The notes beneath the pieces are model-generated. The model ran no database searches and was not told the DNA's origin. It saw only the letters and a list, made by a program, of their open reading frames with translations. A stretch of DNA of 48,611 bases, taken from an uncultured bacterium (lineage in GTDB: Bacteria; Eisenbacteria; RBG-16-71-46; JABDJR01). The translations under genes were made by a program, and so were the position numbers. Location of the stretch: positions 6,261 to 54,871 of the forward strand of contig CAYRIJ010000002.1 of the NCBI GenBank assembly GCA_964424285.1. Reading direction: 5' to 3'. This document shows, one piece after another, positions 411-21,732 of the stretch (its first letter is position 1; each line of letters opens with the position of its first letter).

Positions 411-419
411 GGAGGAGCC

Positions 420-2081: not shown

Positions 2082-2322
2082 TCCCGCCCGGCCGGAGTCG
2101 AACCGCCCCGGCGGCGCCGCTCGCGGAGGCGGCCGGGGCGGGTTTCCTCGCGGAAGGACCGCGATCGGGGGCGAAAGCCCTGTGATAGACTTCACGGGCT
2201 TTGGGCCCCCCGAGCGCGCAAGTTGACGCGAGGGGCGCGGTTGCCGGGGTCGGCGGCCGGGAACGCCCCGGTGTTGCGGGCGGCCCGGCCGGCGCGGAGC
2301 CGGGATCGGGAGGAGAAGGATC

Positions 2323-3447: not shown

Positions 3448-3478
3448 CCCCAAGGACCGAGAGGAAGAGGAGGACGGC

Positions 3479-3865: not shown

Positions 3866-3866
3866 G

Positions 3867-7509: not shown

Positions 7510-9341
7510 GCGAACCGACCTTGCCGAAGGAGGTGCGGTCCGTCCTGGCCACGGACTGCGGCAGCACCACCACCAAGGCCATCCTGATCGAGAAGCGCGG
7601 AGACGAGTACCGCCTCATCGTCCGCGGAGAGGCCCCCACCACGGTGGAAGCGCCCTTCGAGGACGTGACCAAGGGGGTGCTGAACTCCGTCCGCGAGGTG
7701 GAGGAGCTGGCCGGCCGCCAGATCCTCGACGGCGAGACGATCATCACCCCCCAGGTGGGGGACAAGGGAGTGGACATCTACCTCTCCACCTCCTCCGCCG
7801 GCGGCGGGCTCCAGATGATGGTGACCGGGGTGGTGAAGACCATGACCGGGGAATCGGCGGAGCGGGCGGCGCTGGGGGCGGGCGCGATCGTGATGGACGT
7901 GATCGCCTCCAACGACGGGCGGCTCCCCTACCAGAAGATCCAGCGCATCCGCCAGCTTCGCCCCGACATGATCCTCCTCTCCGGAGGCGTGGACGGAGGC
8001 ACGACCAAGCACGTGGTCGAGCTGGGCGAGCTCATCTCCGCCGCCGATCCCAAGGCCCGGCTGGGGCTCAGCTACAAGCTCCCCATCATCTACGCCGGCA
8101 ACACCGACGCCCGCGGGAACATCGAGGAGATCCTGGGGGAGAAGACCGCGCTCAGCGTGGTGGACAACCTCCGTCCCACCATGGAGCGCGAAAACCTCAT
8201 GCCCGCCCGCCACGCCATCCACGATCTGTTCATGGAGCACGTGATGGCCCAGGCTCCGGGCTACAAGAAGCTCATGTCCTGGACCCCGGTTCCCATCATG
8301 CCGACCCCGGCGGCCATGGGGCGGATCATCGAATCGGTGGGGGAGAAGGAAGGGATCGACGTCCTGGGGGTGGACATCGGGGGGGCCACCACCGACGTGT
8401 TCTCGGTGTTCTCCAAGGTCTTCAACCGCACCGTGTCCGCCAACCTCGGCATGTCGTACTCGGTCTCCAACGTCCTGGCCGAGGCGGGGGTGGAGAACGT
8501 CATGCGCTGGGTCCCCTTCGAGCTGGAGGAGGCGGACCTCCGCAACCGGGTCAAGAACAAGATGATTCGCCCCACCACCATTCCCCAGACCCGGCAGGAG
8601 CTCATGGTGGAGCAGGCCCTGGCCCGGGAGGCCCTCCGGCTGGCCTTCGCCCAGCACAAGGCGCTGGCGGTGGGGCTCAAGGGGGTCCAGCAGGAGCGCA
8701 CCATCTCCGACACCTTCGAGCAGACCACCTCGGGGGAGACCCTGGTGAGCCTGGATTCCCTGGCCCTGGTGGTGGGCTCGGGAGGGGTGCTGTCCCACGC
8801 CCCGCGGCGCCAGCAGGCCATGCTGATGATGACCGACGCCTTCCTCCCCGAGGGGGTCACCGAGATGGCGGTGGACTCGATCTTCATGATGCCGCACCTC
8901 GGGGTGCTCTCCACCCGGTACCCGGCGGTGGCCACCGAGGTCTTCGAGAAGGACTGCATGATCCGCCTCGGCACCACCGTGGCCCCCTGGGGAGACGGGA
9001 AGGCGGGCCAGCCCGCCTTCACCGCCCGCATCAAGTTCGCCGACGGGCGGGAGGAGAGCCACTCCCTCGACTACGGCGATCTGCGGCTTCTGCCCCTGGG
9101 GGTGGGGGAAGAGGCCGAGGTCCATCTTGAACCCTCGAAGCACCTCGACTTCGGCGAGGGGAAGGGACGCTCCGCGACCCGGACCTTGAAGGGAGGGGTG
9201 GTGGGGATTCTGCTCGACGCCCGGGGGCGGCGGCCCTTCCGGCTTCCCGCGGACCGCGCGCGGCGGGTGGAAGCGCTCCGCCGCTGGAACCGGGCCGTGG
9301 ACATGTATGCGGACCCCGCGTCCGCGACCGCCGCCGACTAG
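7506..9341 (+). CDS. GlmL/MutL-family actin-fold (ASKHA-like) ATPase, long form
   Basis: N-terminal phosphate-1 motif LATDCGSTTTKAILIE, a second nucleotide motif VLGVDIGGATTDVFSV, and LLSGGVDGGT. TTG start in a TTGA overlap with the upstream stop, with a GAGGAGAG RBS. The family assignment is from memory of glutamate-mutase accessory protein relatives. Confidence 0.7.
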   Translation: MSEPTLPKEVRSVLATDCGSTTTKAILIEKRGDEYRLIVRGEAPTTVEAPFEDVTKGVLNSVREVEELAGRQILDGETIITPQVGDKGVDIYLSTSSAGGGLQMMVTGVVKTMTGESAERAALGAGAIVMDVIASNDGRLPYQKIQRIRQLRPDMILLSGGVDGGTTKHVVELGELISAADPKARLGLSYKLPIIYAGNTDARGNIEEILGEKTALSVVDNLRPTMERENLMPARHAIHDLFMEHVMAQAPGYKKLMSWTPVPIMPTPAAMGRIIESVGEKEGIDVLGVDIGGATTDVFSVFSKVFNRTVSANLGMSYSVSNVLAEAGVENVMRWVPFELEEADLRNRVKNKMIRPTTIPQTRQELMVEQALAREALRLAFAQHKALAVGLKGVQQERTISDTFEQTTSGETLVSLDSLALVVGSGGVLSHAPRRQQAMLMMTDAFLPEGVTEMAVDSIFMMPHLGVLSTRYPAVATEVFEKDCMIRLGTTVAPWGDGKAGQPAFTARIKFADGREESHSLDYGDLRLLPLGVGEEAEVHLEPSKHLDFGEGKGRSATRTLKGGVVGILLDARGRRPFRLPADRARRVEALRRWNRAVDMYADPASATAAD

Positions 9342-9363
9342 GAACCGAGGAAAGGAAGCGCAC

Positions 9364-10485
9364 GTGGCACACGCATACACGCCGGGGCTCCGGGTCACCG
9401 GCCACACCGTGATCGACAAGGTCCGTCGCCTCCCCCTCAAGGGGGAGGTGGTGGCGAAGCAGGGGGACACGGTCCGGGCCGAGGACGTGGTGGCCCGAAC
9501 CGCCCTCCCGGGAAACGTGAAGACGGTCAACGTGGCCAACATCCTCGGCGTTCCCCCCGCGGACATCGCCGGCTGCATGCTCAAGCAGCCGGGGGAGTCG
9601 GTGAAGGAGGGGGAGCCGATCGCCCGGGCCAAGTCCCTGTTCGGCCTCCTCAAGTCCACCGCCCGGGCCAACACCACCGGCACCCTCGAAAACGTCTCGG
9701 AGGTCACCGGCCAGGTCACCCTCCGCGAACCCGCCCTCCCGGTGGAGATGGTGGCCTACGTGGACGGCACGGTGAAGGAGGTCATGCCCGAGGAGGGGGT
9801 GGTGGTCGAGACCCGCGGCGCGCTGATCCAGGGTATCTTCGGGATCGGGGGAGAGGGGGTGGGCCTCCTCCACCTGGCGGTGGACGCCCCGGACCGGCAG
9901 GCCGATCCCGAGTCGCTCAGGGACGTGAAGGGGAAGGTGGTGGTGGTGGGAACCCAGGCCACCTACGCCATCATCCAGGAAGCCCGCAAGCAGGGAGCGG
10001 CGGCGATCGTGGCCGGGGGGATGGCCGACGAGGACCTGAGGAAGCTCCTGGGGTACGACCTCGGGGTGGCCATCACCGGAAGCGAGGACCTGGGCCTCAC
10101 CGTGATCACCACCGAGGGGTTCGGGGCGCTCACCATGGCCGACAAGACCTTCGAGCTCCTGGTCCGTCTGAACGGCAAGAAGGCCTCGGTGAACGGGGCC
10201 ACCCAGATCCGGGCCGGCGTGCTTCGCCCGGAGATCATCGTCCCCCTGGAGGAGAGCCGGGGGAAGGCGGAGTCGCCGGACACCTTCCAGGGCGGTCTCG
10301 ACGTGGGCATGGTCATCCGCGTGATCCGCGAACCCTACTTCGGGCGTCTGGGGCAGGTGACCGCGCTCCCTTCCGAGCTCGTCGCCCTGGAGACCGAGGC
10401 CAAGGTGCGGGTGCTCCGGGTGAAGCTCGCCGGCGGGGACGAGGTCGTCGTGCCTCGCGCGAACGTGGAAATGATCGAGGGCTGA
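9364..10485 (+). CDS. Conserved hypothetical protein, partner of the GlmL-like ATPase; the N-terminus looks like a barrel-sandwich hybrid (lipoyl/biotinyl-like) fold
   Basis: GTG at 9364 is preceded by an AGGAAAGGAAG RBS. The half-motifs KGEVVAKQGDTVRAEDVV and SVKEGEPIARAK resemble hybrid-barrel domains. The rest is unassigned. Confidence 0.6.
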   Translation: MAHAYTPGLRVTGHTVIDKVRRLPLKGEVVAKQGDTVRAEDVVARTALPGNVKTVNVANILGVPPADIAGCMLKQPGESVKEGEPIARAKSLFGLLKSTARANTTGTLENVSEVTGQVTLREPALPVEMVAYVDGTVKEVMPEEGVVVETRGALIQGIFGIGGEGVGLLHLAVDAPDRQADPESLRDVKGKVVVVGTQATYAIIQEARKQGAAAIVAGGMADEDLRKLLGYDLGVAITGSEDLGLTVITTEGFGALTMADKTFELLVRLNGKKASVNGATQIRAGVLRPEIIVPLEESRGKAESPDTFQGGLDVGMVIRVIREPYFGRLGQVTALPSELVALETEAKVRVLRVKLAGGDEVVVPRANVEMIEG

Positions 10486-10488
10486 TCG

Positions 10489-11223
10489 ATGAACGAGCGG
10501 GAGTACCCCGGCGAAAAGACCCGGATCCCCATCCCTTCCTACGAGGAGACCCCGCTCAGCCGGTCCGAGTACATCTCGGCCCTGGTGCATTTCTACCGGG
10601 GGGAGCTGGACCGGGCCACCCAGTGGCGCCTGCGCCTGGACAACACCACCAACTGGGCCATCCTCTCGGTCATGGGGCTCGTCACCTTCAGCCTCGGCGA
10701 GCCCTCCCACTCCCACGTGGGGATCCTGGCCGGCATGATCCTGGTCTTCACCTTCCTGGGCATCGAGGCCCGGCGCTTCCGGTTCTTCGACGTCTGGCGC
10801 GCCCGGGTGCATATGCTGGAAGAGAACTTCTTCGGGCCGATCCTCCGCCGGGATCTTCGAAGCCCGGTGGCCAACTGGGGGAAGCTGGTGGCCGAGGATC
10901 TCCTCCGCCCCCGGTTCAAGATCACCTACCAGCAGGCGGTCCGCGCGAGGCTGCGGCGCAATTACGGGGCGCTCTTCCTGCTTCTCCTGGGGAGCTGGGT
11001 GCTGAAGCTGCTCATGCACCCCGGGGTGATCGAGGGGGAGTACTCGTTCTACCGGAGCATGCGGATCGGCCCGGTGCCTCCCTGGGTGGCCCTCGCCCTG
11101 GTGCTCGCCCTCTACCTGTACCTGGCCGCAGTCCTCCTGGCCGTGCCGTCCATCGGCACCCCCGAGGAGGAGTACTGGGGAAGGCGGACCAACGAGGAAC
11201 GGCTCTCTCCCTTCGACATCTGA
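10489..11223 (+). CDS. DUF2270-like integral membrane protein
   Basis: Starts 3 nt after the upstream stop. Carries the YRGELDRATQWRLRLDNTTNWAI motif followed by several TM helices. The assignment is recalled from the DUF2270 family pattern. Confidence 0.6.
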   Translation: MNEREYPGEKTRIPIPSYEETPLSRSEYISALVHFYRGELDRATQWRLRLDNTTNWAILSVMGLVTFSLGEPSHSHVGILAGMILVFTFLGIEARRFRFFDVWRARVHMLEENFFGPILRRDLRSPVANWGKLVAEDLLRPRFKITYQQAVRARLRRNYGALFLLLLGSWVLKLLMHPGVIEGEYSFYRSMRIGPVPPWVALALVLALYLYLAAVLLAVPSIGTPEEEYWGRRTNEERLSPFDI

Positions 11224-11327
11224 TTCCCTCCGCCTCCGGTCCTTCAAACCGGATCGCCGCCGGCCGATAACCCCCGAAGAGGGCGAGGTCCGCCCTCGAA
11301 GGATTCAACCCGGGAGACGCGGCCTCG

Positions 11328-11744
11328 GTGAGCCCCACCAGCGGACATGACCCGCGCTATCGCCCCCCCCTGACCCGATCGGGGAGGCTGGGGACCGCCA
11401 TGCACGTCCTGGCGGCCCTGGCCGCCTGGGTGGCGTTCGGGGTGTTCTGGTACGAGGTGTTCTGCCGCACCCCTCCGGCGGAGAGCGCGGCCGGGGTCCT
11501 GGTGGTCGCGGTCCTCCTTCTGACGTCGGTGAGCCTCACCGCGGCCTGGATCCGGCACAACCTGGTGCTCTCCCGGCGGTACGCGTTCCGGAGGAAATCG
11601 GTGCCGCAGGCGCAGGCGGACTGGAGCCGGGACGCCCTCGGCCGTCCGGTGGCCGGCCCCGACTGGGAAGCCCTCCAGAACGCCCCGGAAGTGGAGATCG
11701 ATCTCGATCCCGCCTCGGGGCGGAAGATCTACCGGGCGTTTTGA
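11328..11744 (+). CDS. Small two-TM membrane protein, possibly a PgaD-like synthase accessory subunit
   Basis: 138 aa with two TM helices (VLAALAAWVAFGVFWYEVF and VLVVAVLLLTSVSLTAAWI) followed by a basic tail. Its stop overlaps the GT2 start (ATGA-type, 4 nt). An alternative ATG start lies at 11400. PgaD-likeness is inferred from size, topology and coupling only. Confidence 0.5.
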   Translation: MSPTSGHDPRYRPPLTRSGRLGTAMHVLAALAAWVAFGVFWYEVFCRTPPAESAAGVLVVAVLLLTSVSLTAAWIRHNLVLSRRYAFRRKSVPQAQADWSRDALGRPVAGPDWEALQNAPEVEIDLDPASGRKIYRAF

Positions 11745-13015
11745 TGGTGAGCCCGGCCGAGACCGCCGCCGCGGTTCAGGGATCCTGGCTCTACCTGGGG
11801 GCCCTGGTTTTCTTCGCGTTCTATCCGGTGCTCTCCAGCCTGGTCTGGGTTTCCACCTCCCTCCTCTACTACTGGCGATGGGAGCGCCATCTCCTCCCCC
11901 GGTTCTACGACATCGAGGTCTATCCCCTGGTGACCGTGCTGGTGCCCGCCTACGGCGAGGAGAGGGTGATCGCCCGCACGGTGGAGGGGATCCTGGCCCT
12001 GGACTACCCGTTCAAGGAGATCGTGGTGGTGGACGACGCCTCGCCGGACGGGACGGTGGCCGCGTTGGCCCCCTACGTGGAGCGGGGACAGGTGCGCCTG
12101 GTGCGAAAGCGCGTCAACGAGGGGAAGGCCATGGCCCTGAACGACGCCCTTCCCCTGGTGAACGGCGAGATCGTGATGATCATGGACGCCGACGCCTATC
12201 CCGATCCCATGATGTTGCGCTGGATCGTGCCGCACTTCCGCTCCCCGAGAGTGGCGGCGGTGACCGGGAACCCCCGGGTGGCCAACCGGCACAGCTTTCT
12301 GGCCAAGCTCCAGCTCATCGAGTTCGCCTCGATCGTGAGCCTCCTGCGCCGGTCCCAGCGGGTCTGGGGACGGATCCTCACCATGAGCGGGGTGGTGGGG
12401 GCGTTCCGCCGCTCCGCCCTCATCGACGTGGGGCTCATGAGCCCCGAGATGGTCACCGAGGACATCGACATGACCTGGAAGCTCCAGCGCGCCCACTACG
12501 ACGTGCGCTACGAGCCGCGGGCCCTGGTCTGGATGCAGGTGCCGTCGAGCCTGGGGGGCCTCTTCCGCCAGCGCATCCGCTGGGCCAAGGGCCTGGCCCA
12601 GGTGCTCCATCGTAACCGCGACCTCCTCCTGGATCGCCGCCACCGGCGCCACTGGCCGGTCCTGATCGAGGCCGTCCTGTCCATCACCTGGGCCTACGTC
12701 ATGGTGGGGCTCATCGCGCTCTGGATCGCTTTCCGCGCGGCCGGGCTTCCCATTCTGGGCGTCTCCCCGATCCCCACCTGGTGGGGAATGCTGATCGGCA
12801 CCACCTGCCTCCTCCAGCTCCTGGCCGGGGTGCTCCTGGAGCGGCGCTACGACCGCACCCTCTCCCGCTACTTCTACGTGGCGGTGTTCTACCCCATCAT
12901 CTACTGGTTGCTGATGGCGGTGGTGACGGTGATCGCCACCCCCATGGGCCTGGCCGTCCCGCCCCGGCGGGGGACGGTCTCCCGCTGGCGCACCCGGCGC
13001 GAGCCGGCGGCCTGA
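11741..13015 (+). CDS. Processive family-2 glycosyltransferase (PgaC/IcaA/cellulose-synthase-like beta-glycan synthase)
   Basis: D,D,D,QxxRW signature: VVVDDASPDGT, IMDADA, TEDID and QRIRWAKG. TM helices flank the catalytic domain. Confidence 0.85.
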   Translation: MMVSPAETAAAVQGSWLYLGALVFFAFYPVLSSLVWVSTSLLYYWRWERHLLPRFYDIEVYPLVTVLVPAYGEERVIARTVEGILALDYPFKEIVVVDDASPDGTVAALAPYVERGQVRLVRKRVNEGKAMALNDALPLVNGEIVMIMDADAYPDPMMLRWIVPHFRSPRVAAVTGNPRVANRHSFLAKLQLIEFASIVSLLRRSQRVWGRILTMSGVVGAFRRSALIDVGLMSPEMVTEDIDMTWKLQRAHYDVRYEPRALVWMQVPSSLGGLFRQRIRWAKGLAQVLHRNRDLLLDRRHRRHWPVLIEAVLSITWAYVMVGLIALWIAFRAAGLPILGVSPIPTWWGMLIGTTCLLQLLAGVLLERRYDRTLSRYFYVAVFYPIIYWLLMAVVTVIATPMGLAVPPRRGTVSRWRTRREPAA

Positions 13016-13062
13016 CAACCTTTCTCTTCGGTAATACCGACCGCCGTTGTCCGGTTTCCTCG

Positions 13063-13108
13063 TTGACCCCCGGCAAGCCCTCTGTTAGCGTTTCGAAATC
13101 TTTTTCGA
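13063..13108 (+). promoter_or_regulatory. Candidate promoter plus a small inverted repeat in front of the four-gene membrane operon
   Basis: TTGACC (13063-13068), a 17-nt spacer, then TAGCGT (13086-13091). These are followed by the inverted repeat TCGAAA-tctt-TTTCGA (13093-13108) in a locally AT-rich patch. Confidence 0.3.
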
Positions 13109-13133
13109 CACCCTTGAGGAACCGTCTATCCCC

Positions 13134-14207
13134 ATGTGGACCGCTCCGATATCCAAATGCCGTCGGCGCCGCCCGGCAGCGGTAGGCCGCGCCGCGACAG
13201 TGCTGCAAGCCGTCCTCCGGACCACGGTTCTGGGGCTGGCGCTGCTGGTCATGGCCGCCGGAGCGCGGGCGGAACCCGCGCCGGGGGACAGCGCGGGCGC
13301 CCCGGTCGGAACCGCGCCGGCCGCGCTGGGCGCGACCGACACCCTCGCCCTCGGAACCGCGCCCCCCCCGCTCTCCGTTTCGGGGGGGGGAGCCGCCGAG
13401 GCCTCGGAGGACGGACCGAAGACCTTCCGCCAGAAGCTCTTCGACACCACGTTTTTCCCGGTGTTCGTCGGGCTCGCCCTGTTCGGCGCGCTCTTCCTGT
13501 GGGCCATCGCCCGGGCGGAGCGGGGAAAGCAGTTCTTCATCCGCAAGATCGCCGGCCTGGACGCGGTGGAGGAGGCGGTGGGGCGCGCCACCGAGATGGG
13601 GAAGCCGGTCCTCTACGTCCCCGGGATCGACGACGTCAACAACATCCAGACCATCTACTCGATGATCATCCTGGGGAACGTGGCCCGCACCGTGGCCAAG
13701 TACGAGACCCCGTTGATCGTGCCGTTGGCCCGCGCCTTCGTGGTCCCCCTGGCCGAGGAGACGGTGAAGCAGGCCTACATCGACGCCGGGGTCCCCGACG
13801 CCTACAACCCCAACAACATCCGCTACCTCTCCGAGGAGCAGTTCGCCTTCACCGCCGGGGTGGACGGGATCATGCTCCGGGAGAAACCGGCGGCGAACCT
13901 CTTCCTGGGCTCGTTCTTCGCCGAGAGCCTCATCCTGGCCGAGACCGGCTTCCAGACCGGGGCCATCCAGATCGCCGGCACCGCCAACATCCACCAGCTC
14001 CCCTTCTTCGTGGTGGCGTGCGACTACACCCTGATCGGGGAGGAGTTCTACGCGGCCACCGCCTACCTGGCCCGGGAGCCCAAGCTGGTGGGAACGCTCA
14101 AGGGAACCGACTACATGAAGATCGTGATCCTGGCCTACCTGGTCCTGGGGACCCTCCTCGAGACCTTCGGGATCCACGCCCTCACCAACTTCCTCAGGCT
14201 GGACTAA
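13134..14207 (+). CDS. Unknown-function membrane protein A (signal peptide, Ala/Pro/Gly linker, TM helix, domain of about 200 aa, C-terminal TM helix)
   Basis: Signal-like N-terminus VLGLALLVMAAGARA/EP. TM helix FFPVFVGLALFGALFLWAI. Conserved-looking core IRKIAGLDAVEEAVGRATEMGKPVLYVPG. First gene of a tight four-gene operon. No motif recognised. Confidence 0.6.
   Translation: MWTAPISKCRRRRPAAVGRAATVLQAVLRTTVLGLALLVMAAGARAEPAPGDSAGAPVGTAPAALGATDTLALGTAPPPLSVSGGGAAEASEDGPKTFRQKLFDTTFFPVFVGLALFGALFLWAIARAERGKQFFIRKIAGLDAVEEAVGRATEMGKPVLYVPGIDDVNNIQTIYSMIILGNVARTVAKYETPLIVPLARAFVVPLAEETVKQAYIDAGVPDAYNPNNIRYLSEEQFAFTAGVDGIMLREKPAANLFLGSFFAESLILAETGFQTGAIQIAGTANIHQLPFFVVACDYTLIGEEFYAATAYLAREPKLVGTLKGTDYMKIVILAYLVLGTLLETFGIHALTNFLRLD
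13362..13390 (+). repeat. C8-N12-G9 complementary homopolymer pair inside membrane-protein gene A
   Basis: CCCCCCCC (13362-13369), then gctctccgtttc, then GGGGGGGGG (13382-13390). It encodes APPPLSVSGGG in the post-signal-peptide linker. Confidence 0.9.
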
Positions 14208-14210
14208 CCC

Positions 14211-14891
14211 ATGCTGCGTCGTGAAGTGCCGCTCTTCCTCACCATGATCGTGGGCTGGTTCATGGTGGCCGACTTCTTCGTTCCCCTGACCGAGCCGGTG
14301 GGGACGGAGATCCAGAACTGGGCCATCATCATGACCGCGTTCGCCGCGGTGCTGGGGGTGGCCAACGTGGCCCGCATCAACCTGCTCAAGGTGAGCCGGC
14401 GGGACCGGGACTGGCCCTACGCGATGGTGCTGCTGTTCGGTCTGACCGCGATGATGCTCATGGGCACCGCGCTTCCCATCCTGAAGTGGGCGGTGGGGGC
14501 CAAGGGCGAGTGGATGATCGGGAGCCTCCGCCTCACCGGGGTCACCGACGGCACCCTCTTCGACCGGGTCTACAACCGGATGTACGTTCCCCTCCAGGCC
14601 ACCATGTTCGCGCTCCTGGCCTTCTACATCGCGTCGGCCGCGTTCCGGGCCTTCCGGGTGCGGACGGTGGACGCCACCCTCCTCGCGCTGGCCGCGGTGA
14701 TCGTGATGATCGGGCGGGTCCCCCTGGGGGAGAAGATCTGGACCGGCCTCCCCCAGATCACCGACTGGATCATGAACGTCCCCCAGCTCGCGGCCAAGCG
14801 GGCGATCCTGATCGGGGCCGCCCTGGGGGCGATCGCCACCGGGCTCAAGGTGATCCTGGGCATCGAGCGCAACTTCCTGGGGAGCGACTAG
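14211..14891 (+). CDS. Unknown-function polytopic membrane protein B
   Basis: ATG lies 3 nt after the stop of gene A. It has about 5-6 hydrophobic helices and no recognisable transporter or enzyme motif. Confidence 0.6.
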   Translation: MLRREVPLFLTMIVGWFMVADFFVPLTEPVGTEIQNWAIIMTAFAAVLGVANVARINLLKVSRRDRDWPYAMVLLFGLTAMMLMGTALPILKWAVGAKGEWMIGSLRLTGVTDGTLFDRVYNRMYVPLQATMFALLAFYIASAAFRAFRVRTVDATLLALAAVIVMIGRVPLGEKIWTGLPQITDWIMNVPQLAAKRAILIGAALGAIATGLKVILGIERNFLGSD

Positions 14892-14894
14892 CCG

Positions 14895-15770
14895 GTGGCC
14901 GCCGCCGAGCGCACCTTCCTGGAGAAGGTCGAGAAGCTGGACCGCCGCTGGGTGTTCCTGCTCATGCTGATCTCCATCTCCGTCCCCCTCTTCGTCAAGA
15001 TGAACCTCCCCATCCGGGTGAGCGAGCCGGTTCGGGGCTTCTACAAGGCCATCGAGGACCTGAAGCCCGGAGACGTGGTCTACTTCGCCGCCGACTACGA
15101 TCCGGGGTCCAAGCCCGAGCTCGACCCGATGCTGGTGGCCGCCCTGGACCAGCTCTTCCGGAAGAACGTGAAGATCGTGGGGGCCACCCTGTGGCCGGCG
15201 GGGGCGCCGCTCCTGGAGCGGGGGCTCAAGGACGTGGGGGAGGGGACCTACCACCGGGTCTACGGCACCGACTTCGTGAACCTGGGGTTCAAGGAGGGCA
15301 AGGAGAACGTGATGGTCCAGCTCGGGAAGTCCTTCCGGGGGGTCTATCCGAACGACTACTACGGCACCCCGGTGGACCGCCTGCCCCTTCTGGCCGCCAA
15401 GAAGCCCGGGGGCGGCTGGTCGATCGACAACTTCAAGGACGTGAAGCTGATCGTGAACATCTCCGCCGGCTACCCGGGAACCAAGGAGTGGGTGCAGCAG
15501 GTGCGAAGCCGCTACGACATTCCGATCGTGGCCGGAGTCACCGCGGTGAGCGCCCCCGAGTACTACCCCTACGTCCAGTCGGGACAGCTCTCGGGACTCC
15601 TGGGGGGGCTGGCCGGGGCCGCGGAGTACGAGCAGCTGATCGACCGGCCGGCCTGGGCCACCACCGGCATGTCGGCCCAGAGTCTCGGCCACGTCACCAT
15701 CATCGTCCTCATCATCCTGGGGAACCTGGTCTACTACCTGAACCGCCGCCGCCGACCGGAAGCAGAGTAG
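14895..15770 (+). CDS. Unknown-function bitopic membrane protein C (N-terminal TM, soluble domain of about 230 aa, C-terminal TM, then an RRRR tail)
   Basis: GTG lies 3 nt after the stop of gene B. TM helices WVFLLMLISISVPLF and VTIIVLIILGNLVYYL. No motif recognised. Confidence 0.6.
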   Translation: MAAAERTFLEKVEKLDRRWVFLLMLISISVPLFVKMNLPIRVSEPVRGFYKAIEDLKPGDVVYFAADYDPGSKPELDPMLVAALDQLFRKNVKIVGATLWPAGAPLLERGLKDVGEGTYHRVYGTDFVNLGFKEGKENVMVQLGKSFRGVYPNDYYGTPVDRLPLLAAKKPGGGWSIDNFKDVKLIVNISAGYPGTKEWVQQVRSRYDIPIVAGVTAVSAPEYYPYVQSGQLSGLLGGLAGAAEYEQLIDRPAWATTGMSAQSLGHVTIIVLIILGNLVYYLNRRRRPEAE

Positions 15771-15782
15771 GAGCTCGATCCC

Positions 15783-16499
15783 GTGCACGTGAGCAGCGAT
15801 CCGTGGGTCTGGGTGGCCGCCCTCTGTACCCTGGCCATTCTCTCCTACCTCTACAAGGACAACCCGATCTACAAGACCGCGGAGTACCTCTTCGTGGGGG
15901 TGGCCTCGGGCTACTACCTGAGCATCCAGTACGACAACGTGCTGGTTCCGAACCTGTTCCAGCCGATCTCGCGGGGGGTGTCGGGGGTGTTCGGCGGAAC
16001 CCCGGATCCCACCGGGCTGGTCCGGATCGGGGCCCTGGTCCTGGGGGTGTTCATGTTCGCCCGCTTCGTGCCGCGCATCTCCTGGCTCTCCCGCTGGGCC
16101 ATCGGGGTGATGGTCGGGGCGTACTCCGGCCTGGCGGTGATCGGCTTCGCCCAGGGCGACCTCATCGAGCAGATCCGCTCGAACCTGATGCCCCTGGTTC
16201 AACCCGGCTCCTGGGGCACCCTCGCCGCCGCCCACGGGTTCACCGCGGGCTTGATGGCGGGCCTCGGCGTCCTTTCCAACACGGTGCTGATCCTGGGACT
16301 CGTGACCACCCTGTACTACTTCTTCTTCTCCGCCGAGCACCGGGGGGTGGGGGGCGGCGCCGCCCGCCTCGGGATCTACTACCTCATGATCTCCTTCGGG
16401 GCTTCCTACGGTTTCACGGTCATGGCCCGCATCTCCCTGGCCCTGGACCGCCTGCGGTTCCTGTTCTCGGACTGGCTCGGCTTCCGGCTCATCCATTGA
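15783..16499 (+). CDS. Unknown-function polytopic membrane protein D
   Basis: GTG lies 12 nt after the stop of gene C. It has about 6 hydrophobic helices and is the last gene of the four-gene operon. Confidence 0.6.
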   Translation: MHVSSDPWVWVAALCTLAILSYLYKDNPIYKTAEYLFVGVASGYYLSIQYDNVLVPNLFQPISRGVSGVFGGTPDPTGLVRIGALVLGVFMFARFVPRISWLSRWAIGVMVGAYSGLAVIGFAQGDLIEQIRSNLMPLVQPGSWGTLAAAHGFTAGLMAGLGVLSNTVLILGLVTTLYYFFFSAEHRGVGGGAARLGIYYLMISFGASYGFTVMARISLALDRLRFLFSDWLGFRLIH

Positions 16500-16588
16500 G
16501 GCCGGCCCGGGGCGGTTTCCCGGGGGCGGGGCGCCGCCGGAGGTCCCCGGCGCTCGGCTCCGGGGATCCGAGGTCCCGGCGGGCCGCG

Positions 16589-16618
16589 TTGACAGCCCCT
16601 CGAGCCGCTTTCTATACT
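16589..16618 (+). promoter_or_regulatory. Candidate sigma70-type promoter for the opp/dpp operon
   Basis: TTGACA (16589-16594), an 18-nt spacer, then TATACT (16613-16618), about 70 nt upstream of the substrate-binding protein ATG. These are strikingly consensus-like hexamers in GC-rich DNA. Confidence 0.45.
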
Positions 16619-16686
16619 CGACCACCGTCTACCTCCCCTCATTCCATGGATTTAGGGCCAAGAACCCCCGTCCGGAGGACACCTTC

Positions 16687-18552
16687 ATGCGCGTTTCCCG
16701 TCGCTTCACCCTGGCCATGATGCTCTTGCTCGGCGCCGCCGCCCTGGGGGCCGCCGGGTGCGGGAGGGGGGACGAGAAGGCCCATGAACAGGGGACCGGC
16801 GCCCCGGCCGCGGGCGTCGCGCGTCCGGACACCCTTCCCCGGCCGGCGGGGGCCATGGTCAAGGAGAACGCCTCCGGGATCTACGGGGGGCGCTACGTGG
16901 CCAGCGTGCGCTCCGACCCCAAGACGTGGAACGCGATCATCGCCAACGAGACCTCGACCACCGACATCACCAACCTGCTCTTCGAGGGGATCGTCTCCTT
17001 CAACAACCGGACCCAGGAAACCGAGCCCGCCCTGGCCTCCTCCTGGGACCGGAGCGCGGACGGGCTGGTCTGGACCTTCCACCTCCGCCGGGGGGCCCGC
17101 TGGTCCGACGGGGCGCCGATCACCGCCGACGACGTGATGTTCACGTCGCGCATCCTCTACGACCCGAAGATCCACCCTTCGGCCCAGGAGCTGTGCATGG
17201 CGGGGGGGAAACCCTTCCACTTCGAGAAGGTGGACAGCTTCACCGTTCGGGTCACCCTTCCCGAGCCCTACGGCCCGTTCCTCTCGGTGATCGGGAGCGC
17301 GCCGGTCATGCCCCGGCACATGCTCGAAGCGGCCTACGAGTCCGGGAACTTCGAGTCGGCCTACGGGGTGGACACCGCGCCCGCCGACATCGTGACCAGC
17401 GGCCCGTGGCGGCTGGCCGAGCTGGTGCCCCAGCAGAAGGTGATCCTGAAGCCGAATCCCTACTTCTTCGAGTACGACCCCGCCGGCCACCGGCTCCCGT
17501 ACCTGGACGAGCTGGTGTACCTGGTGGTGCCGGACCAGAACGCCGAGGTCCTCAAGTTCCAGGGCGGCGAGTCGGACGAGATCTACTTCCGGGCCGAGGA
17601 TTACGCCCACATGAAGGACGGCGAGCAGGCGGGGAACTACACCGTGTACGACCTGGGAATGGAGATGGGGTCGAACATGGTCTGGTTCAACCTCAACACC
17701 GGGAAGAATCCCAAGACCGGGAAGCCCTACGTGGACCCGGTCAAGGAGGCCTGGTTCCAGAACCTCGACTTCCGGCGGGCGGTGGCCCACGCGGTGGACC
17801 GGAAGTCCATCGCCGAGACGGTGTACTACGGCACCGCCGACCCCCTCTACGGACCCATCCCCCCGGTGAACAAGAAGTGGTACAACCCGAACATCCAGAA
17901 ATTCACCTACGACCTCGACGAGGCCCGCCGCCTCCTGGACCAGGCGGGCATGAAGGACCGGGACGGGGACGGGGTGCGGGAGGATGCCGGGGGACACCCC
18001 ATCTCCTTCGTGATCTACACCAACGCGGACAGCCGCGAGCGGGTGGCCACCGGGAACATCCTGGTGGACGATCTGTCCAAGATCGGCATCAAGGCCACCA
18101 TGGCCCCGAGCGAGTTCAACGCCATCATCACCAAGCTTCGGGATTCCTTCGACTACGACGCCATTCTGCTGGGCCTCACCGGGGGCGTCCCCCCCGATCC
18201 CATCATGTCGTCCAACGTGTTCAAGTCCTCGGGGAAGACCCACTTCTGGTATCCGGAGCAGAAGCATCCGCACACCGCCTGGGAGGCCCAGGTGGACAGC
18301 CTCATGAACGCCCAGGTGACCATGATGGACCCGGCGGCCCGGAAGGCGGTGTTCGACCAGGTCCAGCTCATCATCTCGGAGCAGGTTCCCATGATCTACA
18401 CGGTGAGCCGGCGCGGCTTCATCGCCGTCCGCAACAACTTCACCGGTCTGGAGCCGACCGTGCTCCGGCCCTGGGTGCTCTGGCAGAGCGAGACGGTGAG
18501 CTACGATCCCGCGCGGGCGCACCGGGAACCGGCCCAGCGCGCGGGGAACTGA
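16687..18552 (+). CDS. ABC transporter substrate-binding lipoprotein, family 5 (peptide/nickel, OppA/DppA-like)
   Basis: Lipobox LGAAGC. Size of 621 aa. It is followed by two permeases and two ATPases of the Opp/Dpp type. Family-5 style motifs such as WSDGAPITADDV are present. Confidence 0.88.
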   Translation: MRVSRRFTLAMMLLLGAAALGAAGCGRGDEKAHEQGTGAPAAGVARPDTLPRPAGAMVKENASGIYGGRYVASVRSDPKTWNAIIANETSTTDITNLLFEGIVSFNNRTQETEPALASSWDRSADGLVWTFHLRRGARWSDGAPITADDVMFTSRILYDPKIHPSAQELCMAGGKPFHFEKVDSFTVRVTLPEPYGPFLSVIGSAPVMPRHMLEAAYESGNFESAYGVDTAPADIVTSGPWRLAELVPQQKVILKPNPYFFEYDPAGHRLPYLDELVYLVVPDQNAEVLKFQGGESDEIYFRAEDYAHMKDGEQAGNYTVYDLGMEMGSNMVWFNLNTGKNPKTGKPYVDPVKEAWFQNLDFRRAVAHAVDRKSIAETVYYGTADPLYGPIPPVNKKWYNPNIQKFTYDLDEARRLLDQAGMKDRDGDGVREDAGGHPISFVIYTNADSRERVATGNILVDDLSKIGIKATMAPSEFNAIITKLRDSFDYDAILLGLTGGVPPDPIMSSNVFKSSGKTHFWYPEQKHPHTAWEAQVDSLMNAQVTMMDPAARKAVFDQVQLIISEQVPMIYTVSRRGFIAVRNNFTGLEPTVLRPWVLWQSETVSYDPARAHREPAQRAGN

Positions 18553-18561
18553 CCCAGGGAC

Positions 18562-19527
18562 GTGATCAAGCTCATCCTCAAGCGGCTCCTGCATATGATC
18601 CCCGTGCTCCTGGGGATCTCCTTCCTCACCTTCATGGTGATGCAGCTCGCGCCGGGGGACTTCCTCTCCACCATGGAGCTCAATCCCCAGGTCAGCGAGG
18701 CCACCATCGCCTCCATGCGCGCCCGCTTCGGCCTGGATCAGCCCTGGTACATCCAGTACCTGACCTGGCTCAAGAACATCTTCCTGCACCTGGATTTCGG
18801 CGAATCCTTCTCCCGCCACCAGGCGGTGTTCGGGGTGCTGAGCACCGCGCTCCTGAACACCTTCATCCTGGCCGCGGCCGCCGCGTTGATCACCTGGGCG
18901 TTCGCGGTGCCCCTGGGCATCGTGGCCGCGGTGAAGCAGAACTCCTGGCTCGACAAGCTCTCCTCCACGGTGGCCTTCCTGGGGATCTCCGTTCCCGAGG
19001 TCTTCCTGGCCCTCCTGTTCATCCTCCTCGCGGCCAAGACCGGGTGGTTCCCCACCGGGGGGATGAAGAGCCTCAACTACGAGCAGTTCTCCTGGTGGGG
19101 GAAGGTGGTGGACGTGGGGAGGCACCTGTTCCTCCCCGCGGTGGTGCTGGCCACGGTGCCCCTGGCCGGCCGCATGCGACAGATGCGGGGGAATCTCCTC
19201 GATGTTCTGCGCGCCGACTACGTGACCACGGCCCGGGCCAAGGGTCTCCCCGAGCGGACGGTGATCGTGAAGCATGCGGTGCGGAACGCCATCAACCCCC
19301 TCATCACCCTCTTCGGCTACACCCTGGGGAGCCTCTTGTCCGGGGCGTTCCTGGTGGAGGTGGTGATGTCCTGGCCGGGGCTGGGACGCATCACCATCGA
19401 CGCCCTGGTGGCCCGGGACCTCTATCTCATCATGGGTTCGGTGCTCATGGCCTCGACCCTGCTCATCCTCGGAAACCTGGTGGCGGACATCCTCCTCGCC
19501 CTGGTCGACCCCCGGATCGAGGTCTGA
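18562..19527 (+). CDS. ABC transporter permease (OppB/DppB-like)
   Basis: Typical N-terminus ILKRLLHMIPVLLGISFLTFMVMQLAPGD and EAA-loop region YVTTARAKGL. Confidence 0.9.
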   Translation: MIKLILKRLLHMIPVLLGISFLTFMVMQLAPGDFLSTMELNPQVSEATIASMRARFGLDQPWYIQYLTWLKNIFLHLDFGESFSRHQAVFGVLSTALLNTFILAAAAALITWAFAVPLGIVAAVKQNSWLDKLSSTVAFLGISVPEVFLALLFILLAAKTGWFPTGGMKSLNYEQFSWWGKVVDVGRHLFLPAVVLATVPLAGRMRQMRGNLLDVLRADYVTTARAKGLPERTVIVKHAVRNAINPLITLFGYTLGSLLSGAFLVEVVMSWPGLGRITIDALVARDLYLIMGSVLMASTLLILGNLVADILLALVDPRIEV

Positions 19528-19528
19528 C

Positions 19529-20662
19529 ATGGCCACCCTGGACGAGCGGACCCCGGGAACCCGGACGGAGGCCTTCGCGGACGTCTCGTCCGGGATGAGT
19601 CCCTACCGGGTGTTCTGGCGGCACTTCCGGCGGGCCCAGCTCGCGGTGGCCGGCGGGGTGGTCCTCATCATCTTCTACCTCACCGCGTTGTTCGCTCCGT
19701 TCGTTGCGCCCTACTCCATGGAGACCCAGGATCGGGAGCGCTTCTTCCATCCCCCCACCGCGATTCACCTGCAGGACGCCCAGGGCCGGTGGCACGCCCC
19801 GTTCGTCTACGGCACCCGGCTCACCGACCGCCTCCGGATCGTCTACGAGGACGACACCTCACGGCGCTATCCGGTGAAGCTCTTTCCCCGCGGCGAGCCC
19901 TACAAGCTCCTCTGGCTCATCCCCACCCACATCCACCTCTTCGGGGTGGAGCCCCCGGGGAAGATCTTCCTCTTCGGGGCCGACCAGTTCGGCCGCGACG
20001 TGTTCTCGCGGCTCCTCTTCGGGGGGAGGATCTCCCTCTCGGTGGGGCTCTTCGGCATCGTCATCACCTACACCCTGGGGCTGTTGTTCGGGGGCATCGC
20101 CGGGTATTACCGGGGGTTGGTGGACAACCTCCTCATGCGCCTCTCCGAGATCATGATGTCGATCCCCGCCCTCTACCTGATCCTGGCCCTTCGGGCCGCG
20201 TTCCCCGCCGACATGCGCTCCGACCTTCTCTACCTGATCATCATTCTCATCCTGTCCCTGGTGCTCTGGGCCTCCCTAGCCCGGATCATCCGGGGCATGG
20301 TGCTGAGCCTCCGGGAGAACGAGTACGTGACCGCGGCCGAGGCCCTGGGCATGTCCTCGCTCCGGATCATCGTCCGGCACATCCTCCCCAACACCGCCTC
20401 CTTCGTGATCGTGGCCGCCACCCTGAGCGTGCCCGGGTACATCCTGGGGGAGGTCGCCCTCTCCTTCCTGGGGGCGGGGATCCAGGAGCCGGTGGCCTCC
20501 TGGGGGAACATGCTCCAGCAGGCCCAGAGCATCCGGGTGCTCACCTCGTTCCCCTGGATTCTCACCCCGGGGATCTTCATCTTCCTGACCGTCCTCGCCT
20601 TCAACTTCCTGGGGGACGGGTTGCGCGACGCCCTCGATCCCCGCAAAGTGGAGGGGAAATAG
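19529..20662 (+). CDS. ABC transporter permease (OppC/DppC-like)
   Basis: Motifs [18 protein letters not shown] and [15 protein letters not shown] lies 1 nt after the upstream stop. Confidence 0.9.
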
Positions 20663-20706
20663 TGCCCCCCCGCGACCCGGCCGCCGACCGCGGCCAAGGA
20701 GTTCCC

Positions 20707-21732
20707 GTGACCCCGAATCCGACCCCCGGACCCGCGCCCCTTCTGGAAGTCCGGGACCTGCGCACGGTGTTCGACACCGACGACGGCGAGGTGCAGGCGG
20801 TGAACGGGGTCTCCTTCGACGTGGGGGCGGGGGAGACCCTGGGGGTGGTGGGGGAGTCGGGCTGCGGGAAGAGCGTGACCGCCTTCAGCATCCTCCGGCT
20901 GATCCCGTCGCCCCCCGGGCGGATCGCCGGGGGACAGGTGCTATTCCGCGGTCGCGATCTCCTGTCCCTCGACGACGAGGCCATGAGGCGGATCCGGGGG
21001 AACGAGATCTCGATGGTGTTTCAGGAGCCCATGACCGCCCTCAACCCGGTGTACACCGTCGGGGACCAGATCATGGAGGCGGTGCGCCTCCACCAGAAGG
21101 TGGGGAAGAGGGAGGCCCGGCGGCGCGCGGTGGAGATGCTGACCAAGGTGGGGATTCCCTCCCCGGACCAGCGGGTGGACGAGTATCCCCACCAGCTCTC
21201 GGGGGGGATGCGCCAGCGGGTGATGATCGCCATGGCCCTCTCCTGCAATCCCGCGGTGCTCATCGCCGACGAGCCCACCACCGCCCTCGACGTCACCATC
21301 CAGGCCCAGATCCTCGAGCTCCTGAAGAGCCTTCAGGCCGAGCTGGGCATGGCCATGATCCTCATCACCCACGACCTGGGGGTGATCGCGGAGACCGCGG
21401 ACCGGGTGGCGGTGATGTACGCGGGGAAGGTGGTGGAGTACACCGACATCCGCACCCTGTTCGCCGCTCCGAGCCATCCCTACACCATCGGCCTCCTCGA
21501 GTCGATCCCCCGCATGACCGAGCGGAAGGAGCGGTTGAGCGTGATCCCCGGGACCGTGCCCCCGCCCACCGCCTTCCCGCCGGGCTGCGCGTTCCATCCG
21601 CGTTGCCCCTTCCTGGACGACGTGTGCCGGCGGGAGGAGCCGGCGCTCGAGCCGTGCGGCGAGGGCCACGAGGTGCGCTGCCATCGCTGGCGCGAGATCC
21701 CGGCGCTCCGGGCCGAGGGGGTGAGCTTCTGA
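20707..21732 (+). CDS. ABC transporter ATP-binding protein (OppD/DppD-like)
   Basis: GTG at 20707 is preceded by an AAGGAG RBS. Walker A GESGCGKS, signature LSGGMRQR, Walker [12 protein letters not shown], and a C-terminal Cys-rich oligopeptide-ATPase tail. Confidence 0.9.

Follow-up and report, generated by a model that had tools for sequence, protein, structure and literature searches.

In B12-dependent glutamate mutase systems and in ornithine degradation, the GlmL/MutL proteins (Pfam PF13941; NCBIfam NF040745 and NF040744) act as accessory proteins. To our knowledge, such accessory proteins of B12-dependent mutases, whose own function is unclear, are the only studied relatives of the ATPase described below. 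In ECF transporters, one energising module serves several S components. In Na+-NQR, NqrC is a bitopic protein with a periplasmic domain, and NqrD and NqrE, which are related to each other, have about 200 aa and six transmembrane (TM) helices each.

We analyzed a 48,611-nt stretch of DNA from an uncultured bacterium of the Eisenbacteria (the window) together with 82 related loci (numbered with the prefix L) that represent at least 12 named phyla. The window carries four adjacent genes, A to D (ABCD), and, upstream of them, the gene of a MutL-type ATPase. The ATPase belongs to the same Pfam family as GlmL and MutL (PF13941) over the whole core of the ASKHA (actin/sugar-kinase/Hsp70) fold, but it falls well short of the equivalog cut-offs, is extended at its C-terminus by about 125 aa and is linked to membrane proteins, not to mutase subunits; no mutase genes were found among its checked neighbours. 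Like ECF and ABC transporters, the locus combines a conserved cytoplasmic ATPase module with less conserved membrane modules, one pair being followed by one to three paralogous sets. However, it shows no homology to them and has no Walker A motif or ABC_tran domain, the ATPase has an actin/kinase fold, and each membrane module consists of four different subunits. A literature search returned no mention of the ABCD system, and no cultured host was seen.

Four membrane proteins are encoded by one gene block

The forward-strand genes A (13134-14207, 357 aa), B (14211-14891, 226 aa), C (14895-15770, 291 aa) and D (15783-16499, 238 aa) are separated by 3, 3 and 12 nt, exactly as an earlier, sequence-only reading of this DNA had stated. 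GC3 is 0.94-0.97 in each of them, and all four are genuine genes. The 1242-aa ORF on the opposite strand (12897-16625) is a shadow ORF, as its GC content peaks at codon position 1. The 118-nt gap before A (13016-13133) has a GC content of 54%, against about 69% for the window. The promoter-like patch that had been proposed there amounts to a weak TTGACC-17-TAGCGT, common to the sister genome L003; a search of the gap for the sigma-70 consensus gave no match, and an internal promoter may be present. The GC-rich non-coding spacer described downstream of D does exist (16500-16686, 72% GC) and ends the cluster, but it carries a strong TTGACA-18-TATACT promoter (16589-16618), which is that of the next operon, an opp-like ABC operon 3' of ABCD.

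Hydrophobic segments and TM helices bore out the claim that all four products are membrane proteins, as well as the architecture ascribed to each. Protein A begins with a signal-peptide-like N-terminus that contains no Cys, so that a lipobox is absent, as had been noted. A variable, extracytoplasmic Ala/Pro/Gly linker follows, and two TM helices (residues ~107-125 and, C-terminal, ~330-348) enclose a Rossmann-like domain of about 200 aa that is cytoplasmic and highly conserved. Six hydrophobic segments in B correspond to six TM helices, and the conserved helices of the B family are rich in Ala, Gly and Ser. C contains a six-stranded alpha/beta domain of about 210 aa, probably periplasmic, that is clamped between TM helices (17-33 and 254-286), and it has an invariant DRR motif on the cytoplasmic side. 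D is polytopic, with the conserved motifs LYKDNPxYKxAE and FFFSxEHxG...FGASYGYTVMxR. These topologies are supported by the positive-inside charge distribution of A, by FN3 or PQQ/BamB-like propeller domains found at the extracytoplasmic N-terminus of some A homologues, and by a CARDB domain in the C loop of one homologue; CARDB or HEAT insertions occur in C homologues. No Walker A motif was found in any of the four proteins, again in agreement with the earlier reading, and no conserved charged residue was found in mid-helix of B or D.

The statement that the proteins contain no recognisable motif does not hold for A, which matches Pfam DUF6754 (PF20539) over the full model (E = 2.4e-112; 374.7 bits, cut-off 27) and is a clear member of that family, with at least 8000 clusters of homologues. 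DUF6754 is a sequence definition only, with no assigned function, structure or literature. For B, C and D, Pfam, NCBIfam and the PDB gave zero matches. A Pfam search of 70 members of the B family and of members of the D family gave no consistent match, and B and D each belong to a new family. The C family comprises 5177 clusters at 50% identity. The AlphaFold2 model of C (pLDDT 93.9) gave only generic Rossmann-type matches in the PDB with Foldseek (TM-score ≤ 0.33), and no substrate-binding fold was recognised among them. No specific structural relative was found in the PDB for the model of A (pLDDT 77, pTM 0.72) or for that of C. The four families are mutually unrelated, and sequence searches found no known homologue of ABCD. 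The description of the system as undescribed thus agrees with the sequence searches for all four proteins and with the structural searches for A and C.

The polysaccharide synthase next to A is an insertion

A PgaC-like GT2 gene (11741-13015) lies directly 5' of ABCD on the same strand, and it had been proposed that ABCD exports or modifies the polysaccharide made by this enzyme, replacing PgaA and PgaB. With 398 bits, the GT2 falls just short of the PgaC equivalog threshold of 422 bits and, together with a small 2-TM protein, P138 (11328-11744), which is possibly PgaD-like, recalls the PgaABCD system. With a DUF2270 gene (10489-11223; GT2 and DUF2270 were assigned by Pfam/NCBIfam), these forward-strand genes make up a lineage-specific insert (10489-13015) outside the conserved system, between A and the upstream gene P392. 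The same block occupies this junction only in the nearest relatives, L003, L004 and L005. A distant GT2 (29% identity) is also found upstream of A in L006 and L008, but all other loci have ABCD with no GT2 nearby. The junction is a general insertion site, occupied by VapBC in L085 and by other sequence, about 6 kb long, in L006. Moreover, A to D contain no PgaA-like or PgaB-like domain, and no deacetylase, porin, TPR or polysaccharide-export domain. Because the GT2 block is an insertion in the closest relatives only, the polysaccharide-export idea is unsupported; it is largely refuted by synteny, and we consider it very improbable.

A MutL-type ATPase and P392 are recurrent neighbours of ABCD

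The genes upstream of the insert are also on the forward strand. X (6668-7099; 143 aa as listed, start uncertain) encodes a small protein with about two TM helices, directly 3' of gcvP2; it is frequently the first gene of the extended cluster, and its homologues precede Y and MutL in about 35 loci. Y (7102-7509) encodes a small conserved protein. Its start in the window is uncertain; homologues have about 90-118 aa, and the conserved part corresponds to the last 90-120 codons of the window ORF. No Pfam family was found for X or Y. Y lies directly before MutL in 42 loci, including those of Planctomycetota, Zixibacteria and Coatesbacteria, and in the window the two genes overlap by 4 nt, at the Y stop and the MutL start.

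The MutL-type ATPase (7506-9341, 611 aa) matches PF13941 with 428.6 bits, against NCBIfam equivalog scores of 232 (cut-off 475) for GlmL and 225 (cut-off 600) for the other model of the NF040745/NF040744 pair. Its nucleotide-binding motifs, DCGSTTTKA, DIGGATTD and GSGGVLSHAP, are invariant, and the gene adjoins ABCD in about 52 loci. The reported absence of a nucleotide-binding partner was therefore an effect of the chosen coordinates.

P392 (9364-10485), which has about 375 aa in the related loci, probably encodes 373 aa here, from a GTG start at 9364; the consensus N-terminus MAHAYTPGL fits this start, and GGAAAGGAAG lies upstream of that GTG. The cytoplasmic protein has an N-terminal barrel-sandwich hybrid, a central alpha/beta domain and a KOW/SH3-like C-terminus. 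Among 30 family members, weak matches were obtained to Biotin_lipoyl (24), RnfC_N (21), NQRA_N (8) and KOW (8).

The barrel-sandwich N-domain of P392, of the kind carried by RnfC and NqrA, raises the question of whether the locus encodes an ATP-driven ion pump or energy-converting complex, a distant Nqr/Rnf analogue with an ATPase in place of the redox input. The sizes and topologies of the ABCD subunits loosely recall NqrC, NqrD and NqrE, with P392 in the place of NqrA. However, the membrane subunits have no sequence relationship to those of Nqr/Rnf: none of 70-71 B and D family members matched the Rnf/Nqr membrane-subunit models, and whereas NqrD and NqrE are related, B and D are not. Conserved Cys, cofactor (flavin-attachment) motifs and conserved intramembrane carboxylates are all absent. 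We regard this explanation as improbable.

The gene order is conserved across phyla

The order and strand of A-B-C-D did not vary in any of the 82 loci with room for four genes, with median gaps of 12, 3 and 10.5 nt, an arrangement far beyond chance. MutL and P392 are same-strand neighbours of ABCD in 55 loci, titled Eisenbacteria, Zixibacteria, Ignavibacteria, Planctomycetota, Acidobacteriota and Coatesbacteria, among others, and the median MutL-P392 gap is 3 nt. In most of the other genomes MutL, P392 and Y adjoin ABCD directly; in the window they lie at about 7102-10485. Accordingly, the earlier idea of a four-gene complex gains support, but that of a self-contained four-gene system has to be amended by these recurrent upstream neighbours.

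Whole ABCD sets, and always whole sets, are duplicated. Three sets follow one MutL-P392 pair in L010, L011 and L021, and two sets do so in L002, L023, L028, L029, L031, L037, L039 and L043. For each of A, B, C and D of the window, the matching paralogue class is set 3 of L010. Natural C-D fusion proteins (P0325, P0356) were found inside a genuine A-B-(CD) cluster. Taken together, the invariant order, the short gaps, the fusions of unrelated families, the duplication of whole sets and the common paralogue class support the earlier suggestion of a membrane complex: the four proteins look like parts of a single, undescribed assembly in the membrane.

It could be argued that this complex is autonomous, a secondary transporter or membrane enzyme, and that its adjacency to MutL-P392 reflects shared regulation or metabolism. 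The P392-A gap is the loosest joint in all loci (median 251 nt), with frequent insertions, and in the window 2.6 kb of foreign genes and the possible promoter separate the two halves. ABCD occurs with neither MutL nor P392 nearby in about 10 loci for which 5 kb or more of upstream sequence is available; their titles are WOR-3, Stahlbacteria, Cloacimonadota, Celaenobacter, Calditrichaeota and 'Bacillota'. Yet the same-strand adjacency in 55 of 82 loci is kept across distant phyla, conservation within ABCD is highest in the cytoplasmic domain of A, and C has its invariant cytoplasmic DRR motif. The most conserved stretch of A, residues 259-304, was left unplaced by AlphaFold2 when A was modelled alone, which suggests a missing partner. 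Autonomy is, in our judgment, unlikely.

ABCD may be the membrane module of an ATP-coupled machine

Sequence identity falls from the cytoplasm outward, from MutL (60-74% across phyla) to A (54-80%) and to B, C and D (about 35-55%), as one would expect of a conserved motor whose parts on the substrate side are more variable. With the 55 of 82 adjacencies, the 3-nt MutL-P392 median and the invariant ASKHA motifs, this gradient argues for coupling of ABCD to the ATPase. We tentatively propose that ABCD serves as the membrane module in a translocation machine of a new kind, coupled to ATP, a reading that we hold to be quite possible, if short of probable. A to D would form a single inner-membrane complex with a total of about 16 TM helices, in which A would supply a cytoplasmic Rossmann-like domain and C a periplasmic alpha/beta domain. 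The MutL-type ATPase, P392 and Y would form the cytoplasmic module, in which MutL would be the energising subunit, through ATP binding and hydrolysis or through phosphoryl transfer. P392 and the cytoplasmic part of A would relay this action to the helix bundle of B and D, and from there it would reach the periplasmic domain of C, so that a substrate would be translocated across the inner membrane. The contact between MutL-P392 and ABCD, and with it the physical coupling and the direction and nature of the work, is inferred. Since the only studied relatives of MutL are mutase accessory proteins, the motor role is an assumption, and MutL could instead be a kinase or a chaperone. Points against this reading are the loci with ABCD and no MutL or P392, the mid-helices of B and D with no conserved charge, and C, in which no substrate-binding fold was recognised.

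Alternatively, ABCD and the ASKHA protein could be a scaffold or force-transmitting complex of the envelope or surface, acting, by analogy, on periplasmic or surface macromolecules such as the cell wall or outer-membrane components, or in adhesion or gliding. An actin-fold cytoplasmic protein combined with bitopic and small polytopic inner-membrane proteins recalls MreB-MreC-MreD/RodZ and PilM-PilN-PilO, and the lack of conserved charged residues in mid-membrane in B and D would agree with such a role. The protein-interaction modules gained by the extracytoplasmic parts of A and C (FN3, BamB-like propeller, CARDB, HEAT) are more usual in machines of the envelope or surface than in importers of small solutes, and in WOR-3 a DUF4388 (PATAN-like) gene and ExbB-ExbD-TonB come after the ABCD block. 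However, no sequence or structural match to the MreB-MreC-MreD or PilM-PilN-PilO proteins exists, and MutL is from another branch of the ASKHA fold, that of hydantoinase A, which is no known filament-forming branch. Two or three tandem paralogous ABCD sets per ATPase are more typical of specificity modules, and peptidoglycan, outer-membrane and motility genes do not recur beside the cluster across phyla. We rate this alternative as somewhat unlikely.

For the translocation machine, a possible role is hinted at by the genomic context. The order gcvT-H-P1-P2-X-Y-MutL-P392-ABCD is found in about 28 loci and lplA lies 3' of D in 36, so that the cluster is placed between gcvTHP and lplA in Eisenbacteria-type genomes. 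A search for known riboswitches, which could have pointed to a ligand, was negative for the window and for 14 loci of other lineages. The gcvTHP, lplA and opp-like ABC surroundings point weakly to amino-acid or peptide nutrition; the gcv/lplA neighbourhood, limited to Eisenbacteria-type genomes, may be inherited gene order only. The loci in which one MutL-P392 pair precedes two or three ABCD sets indicate modularity: one ATPase pair would serve several paralogous membrane modules, as an ECF energising module serves several S components, and ABCD is probably a new kind of system.

Organization of the four-gene block

Four plus-strand ORFs make up the block: A (13134-14207, 357 aa), B (14211-14891, 226 aa), C (14895-15770, 291 aa) and D (15783-16499, 238 aa), separated in the window by spacers of 3, 3 and 12 nt. 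The ORF listing bore out the sizes and tight spacing reported in the sequence-only reading, and the GC3 of the four ORFs, 0.94-0.97 in a window of ~69% GC, agreed with it. An antisense ORF of 1242 aa (12897-16625, minus strand) was rejected as a shadow ORF because its GC content peaks at codon position 1 (0.92/0.47/0.64 by codon position); similar high-GC shadow ORFs blanket most of the window. All four genes lie in one reading frame (starts 0 mod 3), and a single translation reads A-stop-xB-stop-xC-stop-xxxxD. Natural C-D fusions of 598 aa (P0325 and P0356) indicate that the stops between these genes can be lost; one of them sits within a P392-...-A-B-(CD) cluster, P392 being the upstream protein described below.

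The gap before A is 118 nt long and has a GC content of 54%. A promoter-like patch had been proposed here; the gap contained no match to the sigma-70 consensus, and what stood of the proposal was a weak TTGACC-17-TAGCGT common to the window and its sister genome. The non-coding gap after D is GC-rich as described, except that it carries the strong promoter of the following operon: a near-perfect sigma-70 sequence, TTGACA-18-TATACT, at 16589-16618 serves the next, opp-like ABC operon.

Family membership of A, B, C and D

A matched Pfam DUF6754 (PF20539) with 374.7 bits against a gathering threshold of 27 (E = 2.4e-112), covering model positions 3-256 of 257. The statement that the four products have no recognisable motif therefore fails for A, whereas it stands for B, C and D, none of which as a single protein matched anything in Pfam or NCBIfam. 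We also scanned 30-71 members per family for known domains, accepting E values up to 5. Among 70-71 diverse members each of the B, C and D families, no known family recurred in a meaningful fraction. In phmmer and profile searches, the PDB yielded no significant match to A, B, C or D, or to the upstream proteins P392 and MutL, and a Foldseek search of the PDB with the A and C models returned generic Rossmann-type matches only (best E for A, 0.14; all TM-scores for C at or below 0.33). Thus, these searches of Pfam, NCBIfam and the PDB matched none of the four proteins to a characterised transporter or complex. An internal duplication (A with C, B with D) was rejected by hhalign, with probabilities below 3%, and by BLASTP; the four families are mutually unrelated, so the block did not arise in that way.

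The searchable literature held nothing relevant on these proteins or their cluster. Judged from sequence, the ABCD system appears to be new, since apart from a Pfam DUF for A there is nothing on it in Pfam, NCBIfam, the PDB or the literature searched. A homologue search with A of a locus titled Ignavibacteria found MAGs only, with no cultured host among the matches listed, and none of the listed named matches to A or the cluster came from a cultured organism, which is the probable reason for the silence of the literature.

Predicted architecture and topology

Hydropathy analysis, together with AlphaFold2 models of A and C, confirmed the architectures first described for the four proteins. A begins with a signal-peptide-like stretch (RRRR, a hydrophobic core, then ARA followed by EP) and an Ala/Pro/Gly linker, followed by two TM helices, the second of them C-terminal, with an alpha/beta domain of ~200 aa between them (pLDDT 77, pTM 0.72). 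B has six hydrophobic segments and D is polytopic. In C, TM helices at residues 17-33 and 254-286 flank a six-stranded alpha/beta domain (pLDDT 93.9, pTM 0.88). Some A homologues carry FN3 or a 550-aa PQQ/BamB-like propeller at the N-terminus (L063:8306-10765 and P0081), and in two C homologues (P0277 and P0337) CARDB or HEAT repeats interrupt the chain after about residues 105-125.

For A, the positive-inside pattern and the extracytoplasmic nature of the FN3 or propeller domains in those homologues predict a cytoplasmic DUF6754 domain and a variable N-terminus outside the cell. In C, an invariant cytoplasmic DRR before the first TM helix and RRRR after the second suggest that the alpha/beta domain is periplasmic, with which the CARDB insertion in one C homologue agrees. 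The most conserved stretch of A, residues 259-304 (GSFFAESLILAETGF..AGTANIHQLPFFVVACDYTLIGEE), is moderately hydrophobic and is the sole part that AlphaFold2 could not place (pLDDT below 50). We read it as a putative interface or re-entrant element that would need its partner subunits. The conserved helices of B and D are rich in Ala, Gly and Ser, and no conserved mid-membrane charges were found in these two proteins.

The accessory domains of the homologues (FN3, propeller, CARDB and HEAT) favor a machine of the envelope or surface, in which the block would act as a scaffold or force transducer. We consider this rather unlikely as an account of the system.

Conservation of the block and of an upstream ATPase

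In two distant A homologues, the A-B-C-D genes are directly preceded by genes for a Pfam 'MutL' protein and a protein of ~375 aa. By tblastn, these correspond in the window to MutL at 7506-9341 (66-70% identity) and P392 at ~9364-10485 (52-54%), suggesting that the conserved unit is larger than four genes. We then scanned one genome per GTDB species with the DUF6754 alignment. At least 551 species-level genomes, nearly all of them uncultured, carry the domain, and 80 loci were returned. Their titles name Candidatus Eisenbacteria, the largest group, as well as Zixibacteria, Ignavibacteria, Calditrichaeota, WOR-3, Stahlbacteria, Latescibacterota, Cloacimonadota, Coatesbacteria, Planctomycetota, Acidobacteriota and others; the locus nearest to ours (L003) is 91-98% identical to the window. 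The order and strand of A-B-C-D were identical in every locus with room for them (median spacers of 12, 3 and 10.5 nt), demonstrating that the four genes travel as a block, with or without the neighboring glycosyltransferase gene (GT2). Searches with single subunits gave at least 8000 homologue clusters at 90% identity for A, and 5177 clusters at 50% identity for the C family (E up to 1e-3).

In 55 of 82 loci, MutL and P392 adjoin ABCD and share its strand. The gene for a small protein, Y (7102-7509 in the window), precedes MutL in 42 loci, often with that of a 2-TM protein, X (6668-7099), before it. Single genes were seen between MutL and P392, one of the 8xMP (octameric membrane protein) family (L002:2872-3282) and one of DUF6134 in Zixibacteria (L069:15526-16233). 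A single MutL-P392 pair is followed by two tandem ABCD sets in eight loci (L002, L023, L028, L029, L031, L037, L039 and L043) and by three in L010, L011 and L021. Paralogous sets within one genome show ~47-51% local-alignment identity for all four subunits alike. When paralogue classes were compared across subunits, 24 sets were '3333' and many were mixed, probably owing to the use of a single reference genome. Taken together, the synteny, the fusions and the duplication as whole sets argue that ABCD is very probably one hetero-oligomeric inner-membrane complex.

MutL scored 428.6 bits against Pfam MutL (PF13941) and 232.3 bits against the NCBIfam GlmL equivalog, below its cut-off of 475. It differs from GlmL, the glutamate mutase accessory protein, in this score and in its surroundings: the neighbors checked include no glmS or glmE mutase subunit genes and consist of gcv genes, X, Y, P392 and genes for membrane proteins. 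The C-terminus is extended by ~125 aa, and 43 sequences show no variation in the ASKHA phosphate-1, phosphate-2 and adenosine motifs (DCGSTTTKA, DIGGATTD and GSGGVLSHAP). By these motifs, the protein is predicted to be an ATPase of the ASKHA superfamily. MutL is 60-74% identical across phyla, and identity to the window drops from the cytoplasm outward, with 60-74% for MutL, 54-80% for A and ~35-55% for B, C and D.

P392 probably starts at the GTG at 9364; this start agrees with the family's consensus N-terminus, MAHAYTPGL, and is preceded by GGAAAGGAAG. Thirty P392 homologues gave weak matches to Biotin_lipoyl (24/30), RnfC_N (21/30), NQRA_N (8/30) and KOW (8/30), those to RnfC_N and NQRA_N all below the gathering score. 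These weak matches point to a barrel-sandwich hybrid as the putative N-terminal domain, an alpha/beta region in the middle and a C-terminus resembling KOW/SH3. The RnfC_N and NQRA_N matches bring to mind an ATP-driven ion pump resembling Nqr or Rnf. However, even with E values up to 5 accepted, Rnf-Nqr (RnfA/E, NqrD/E), RnfD/NqrB and FMN_bind were absent from the matches of the 70-71 members scanned for each of B, C and D. In these searches, the membrane and FMN_bind subunit families of Rnf and Na+-NQR thus had no counterpart among B, C and D, and we regard such a pump as improbable.

The GT2 insert and the P392-A junction

In the window, three plus-strand genes lie between P392 and A: DUF2270 (10489-11223), a 138-aa 2-TM protein (P138, 11328-11744) whose stop overlaps the start of the next gene, and, adjoining A, the PgaC-like GT2 (11741-13015). 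GT2 scored 398.1 bits against the PgaC equivalog TIGR03937 (cut-off 422.3), and P138 could be its PgaD-like partner. As had been noted, GT2 lacks its usual export partners; a scan of the flanking genes (window 36-18549) showed neither PgaA nor PgaB. From this arrangement, it had been proposed that ABCD exports or modifies the polysaccharide made by GT2. A GT2 ortholog adjoins ABCD only in L003, L004 and L005 of 82 loci, the closest relatives, so synteny led us to reject the GT2/PNAG linkage. Moreover, Pfam and NCBIfam found no PgaB-type deacetylase, PgaA-type porin/TPR or polysaccharide-export domain in A-D. The proposal is not supported by these results, and a role in polysaccharide export seems very improbable.

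Of all joints in the cluster, that between P392 and A is the loosest (median 251 nt). It is also a recurrent insertion site (window 10486-13133; L085:1277-1902; L006:2260-10120), occupied by the GT2 block in the window, by the toxin-antitoxin pair VapBC in L085 and by other genes over ~6 kb in L006. This loose junction, together with ~10 loci that have no ATPase genes near ABCD, speaks for an ABCD that works on its own and merely lies beside MutL-P392, which we judge unlikely, the pair adjoining the block in so many of the loci.

Genomic neighborhood

Upstream on the same strand, at 420-6690, the window encodes an M17 leucyl aminopeptidase, gcvT, gcvH, gcvP1 and gcvP2. The gcvT-gcvH-gcvP1-gcvP2 genes stand directly before the X-Y-MutL-P392 block in the window and in ~28 Eisenbacteria-type loci; no glycine riboswitch was detected. 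In 36 loci (for example, L084:11515-12315), the gene immediately after D encodes a lipoate-protein ligase (LplA/B), which places the block between gcvTHP and lplA. The ligase gene is absent from this position in the window, L001, L003, L004, L007 and L016, and no lplA was found anywhere in the window. An opp-like ABC operon follows the block in 11-16 loci and in the window (16687-21732), where an SBP_bac_5 protein (Pfam) comes first and the ORFs after it look like those of two permeases and ATPases; the Pfam architecture of these permeases and ATPases was seen in the related locus L084. In WOR-3 chromosomes (L074:12853-17974), the genes after ABCD are one for DUF4388 (PATAN-like), two unknown ones and ExbB-ExbD-TonB, and there is no MutL or P392 within 10 kb of the block. 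The context weakly hints at amino-acid or peptide nutrition in the lineage of the window; this is not conserved across phyla. Rfam revealed no known riboswitch or other RNA as a clue to a ligand, either in the window or around the cluster in 14 loci of other lineages.

A candidate ATP-coupled membrane machine

Motif checks upheld the statement that A-D contain neither a Walker A motif nor a lipobox; Walker A was also absent from MutL and P392, and Pfam gave no ABC_tran, BPD_transp or ECF matches. We tentatively favor the reading that ABCD may be the membrane module of an ATP-coupled machine that translocates a substrate, with MutL-P392(-Y) as its cytoplasmic module. Several ABCD modules would then share one MutL-P392 ATPase pair. 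The module logic is similar to that of ECF/ABC systems, but the ABCD machine has no homology to them. With somewhat less assurance, we suggest that Y-MutL-P392-ABCD could represent an unrecognised class of primary active membrane machine, powered by an ASKHA ATPase and not of the P-loop (ABC), P-type or rotary kind. Its four-subunit modules would be interchangeable, one to three per genome, and would give different specificities, and the class would be widespread in uncultured lineages of the FCB group, Planctomycetota and Acidobacteriota.

The coupling, if real, would mean a new energising principle for membrane transport or mechanotransduction, in which a hetero-tetrameric membrane module is driven by an ASKHA-fold ATPase. 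It would also provide the first functional context for a Pfam DUF that comprises at least 8000 clusters (90% identity), for three non-Pfam families (~5200 clusters at 50% identity in the C family by itself) and for the enigmatic GlmL/MutL branch. Even without the ATPase link, ABCD would be a large, conserved and uncharacterised membrane complex whose structure is worthwhile. The high conservation of the system, MutL included, and its presence in at least 551 species-level genomes suggest that it is likely to have physiological weight in abundant sediment and soil lineages such as Eisenbacteria, Zixibacteria, Latescibacteria and WOR-3.
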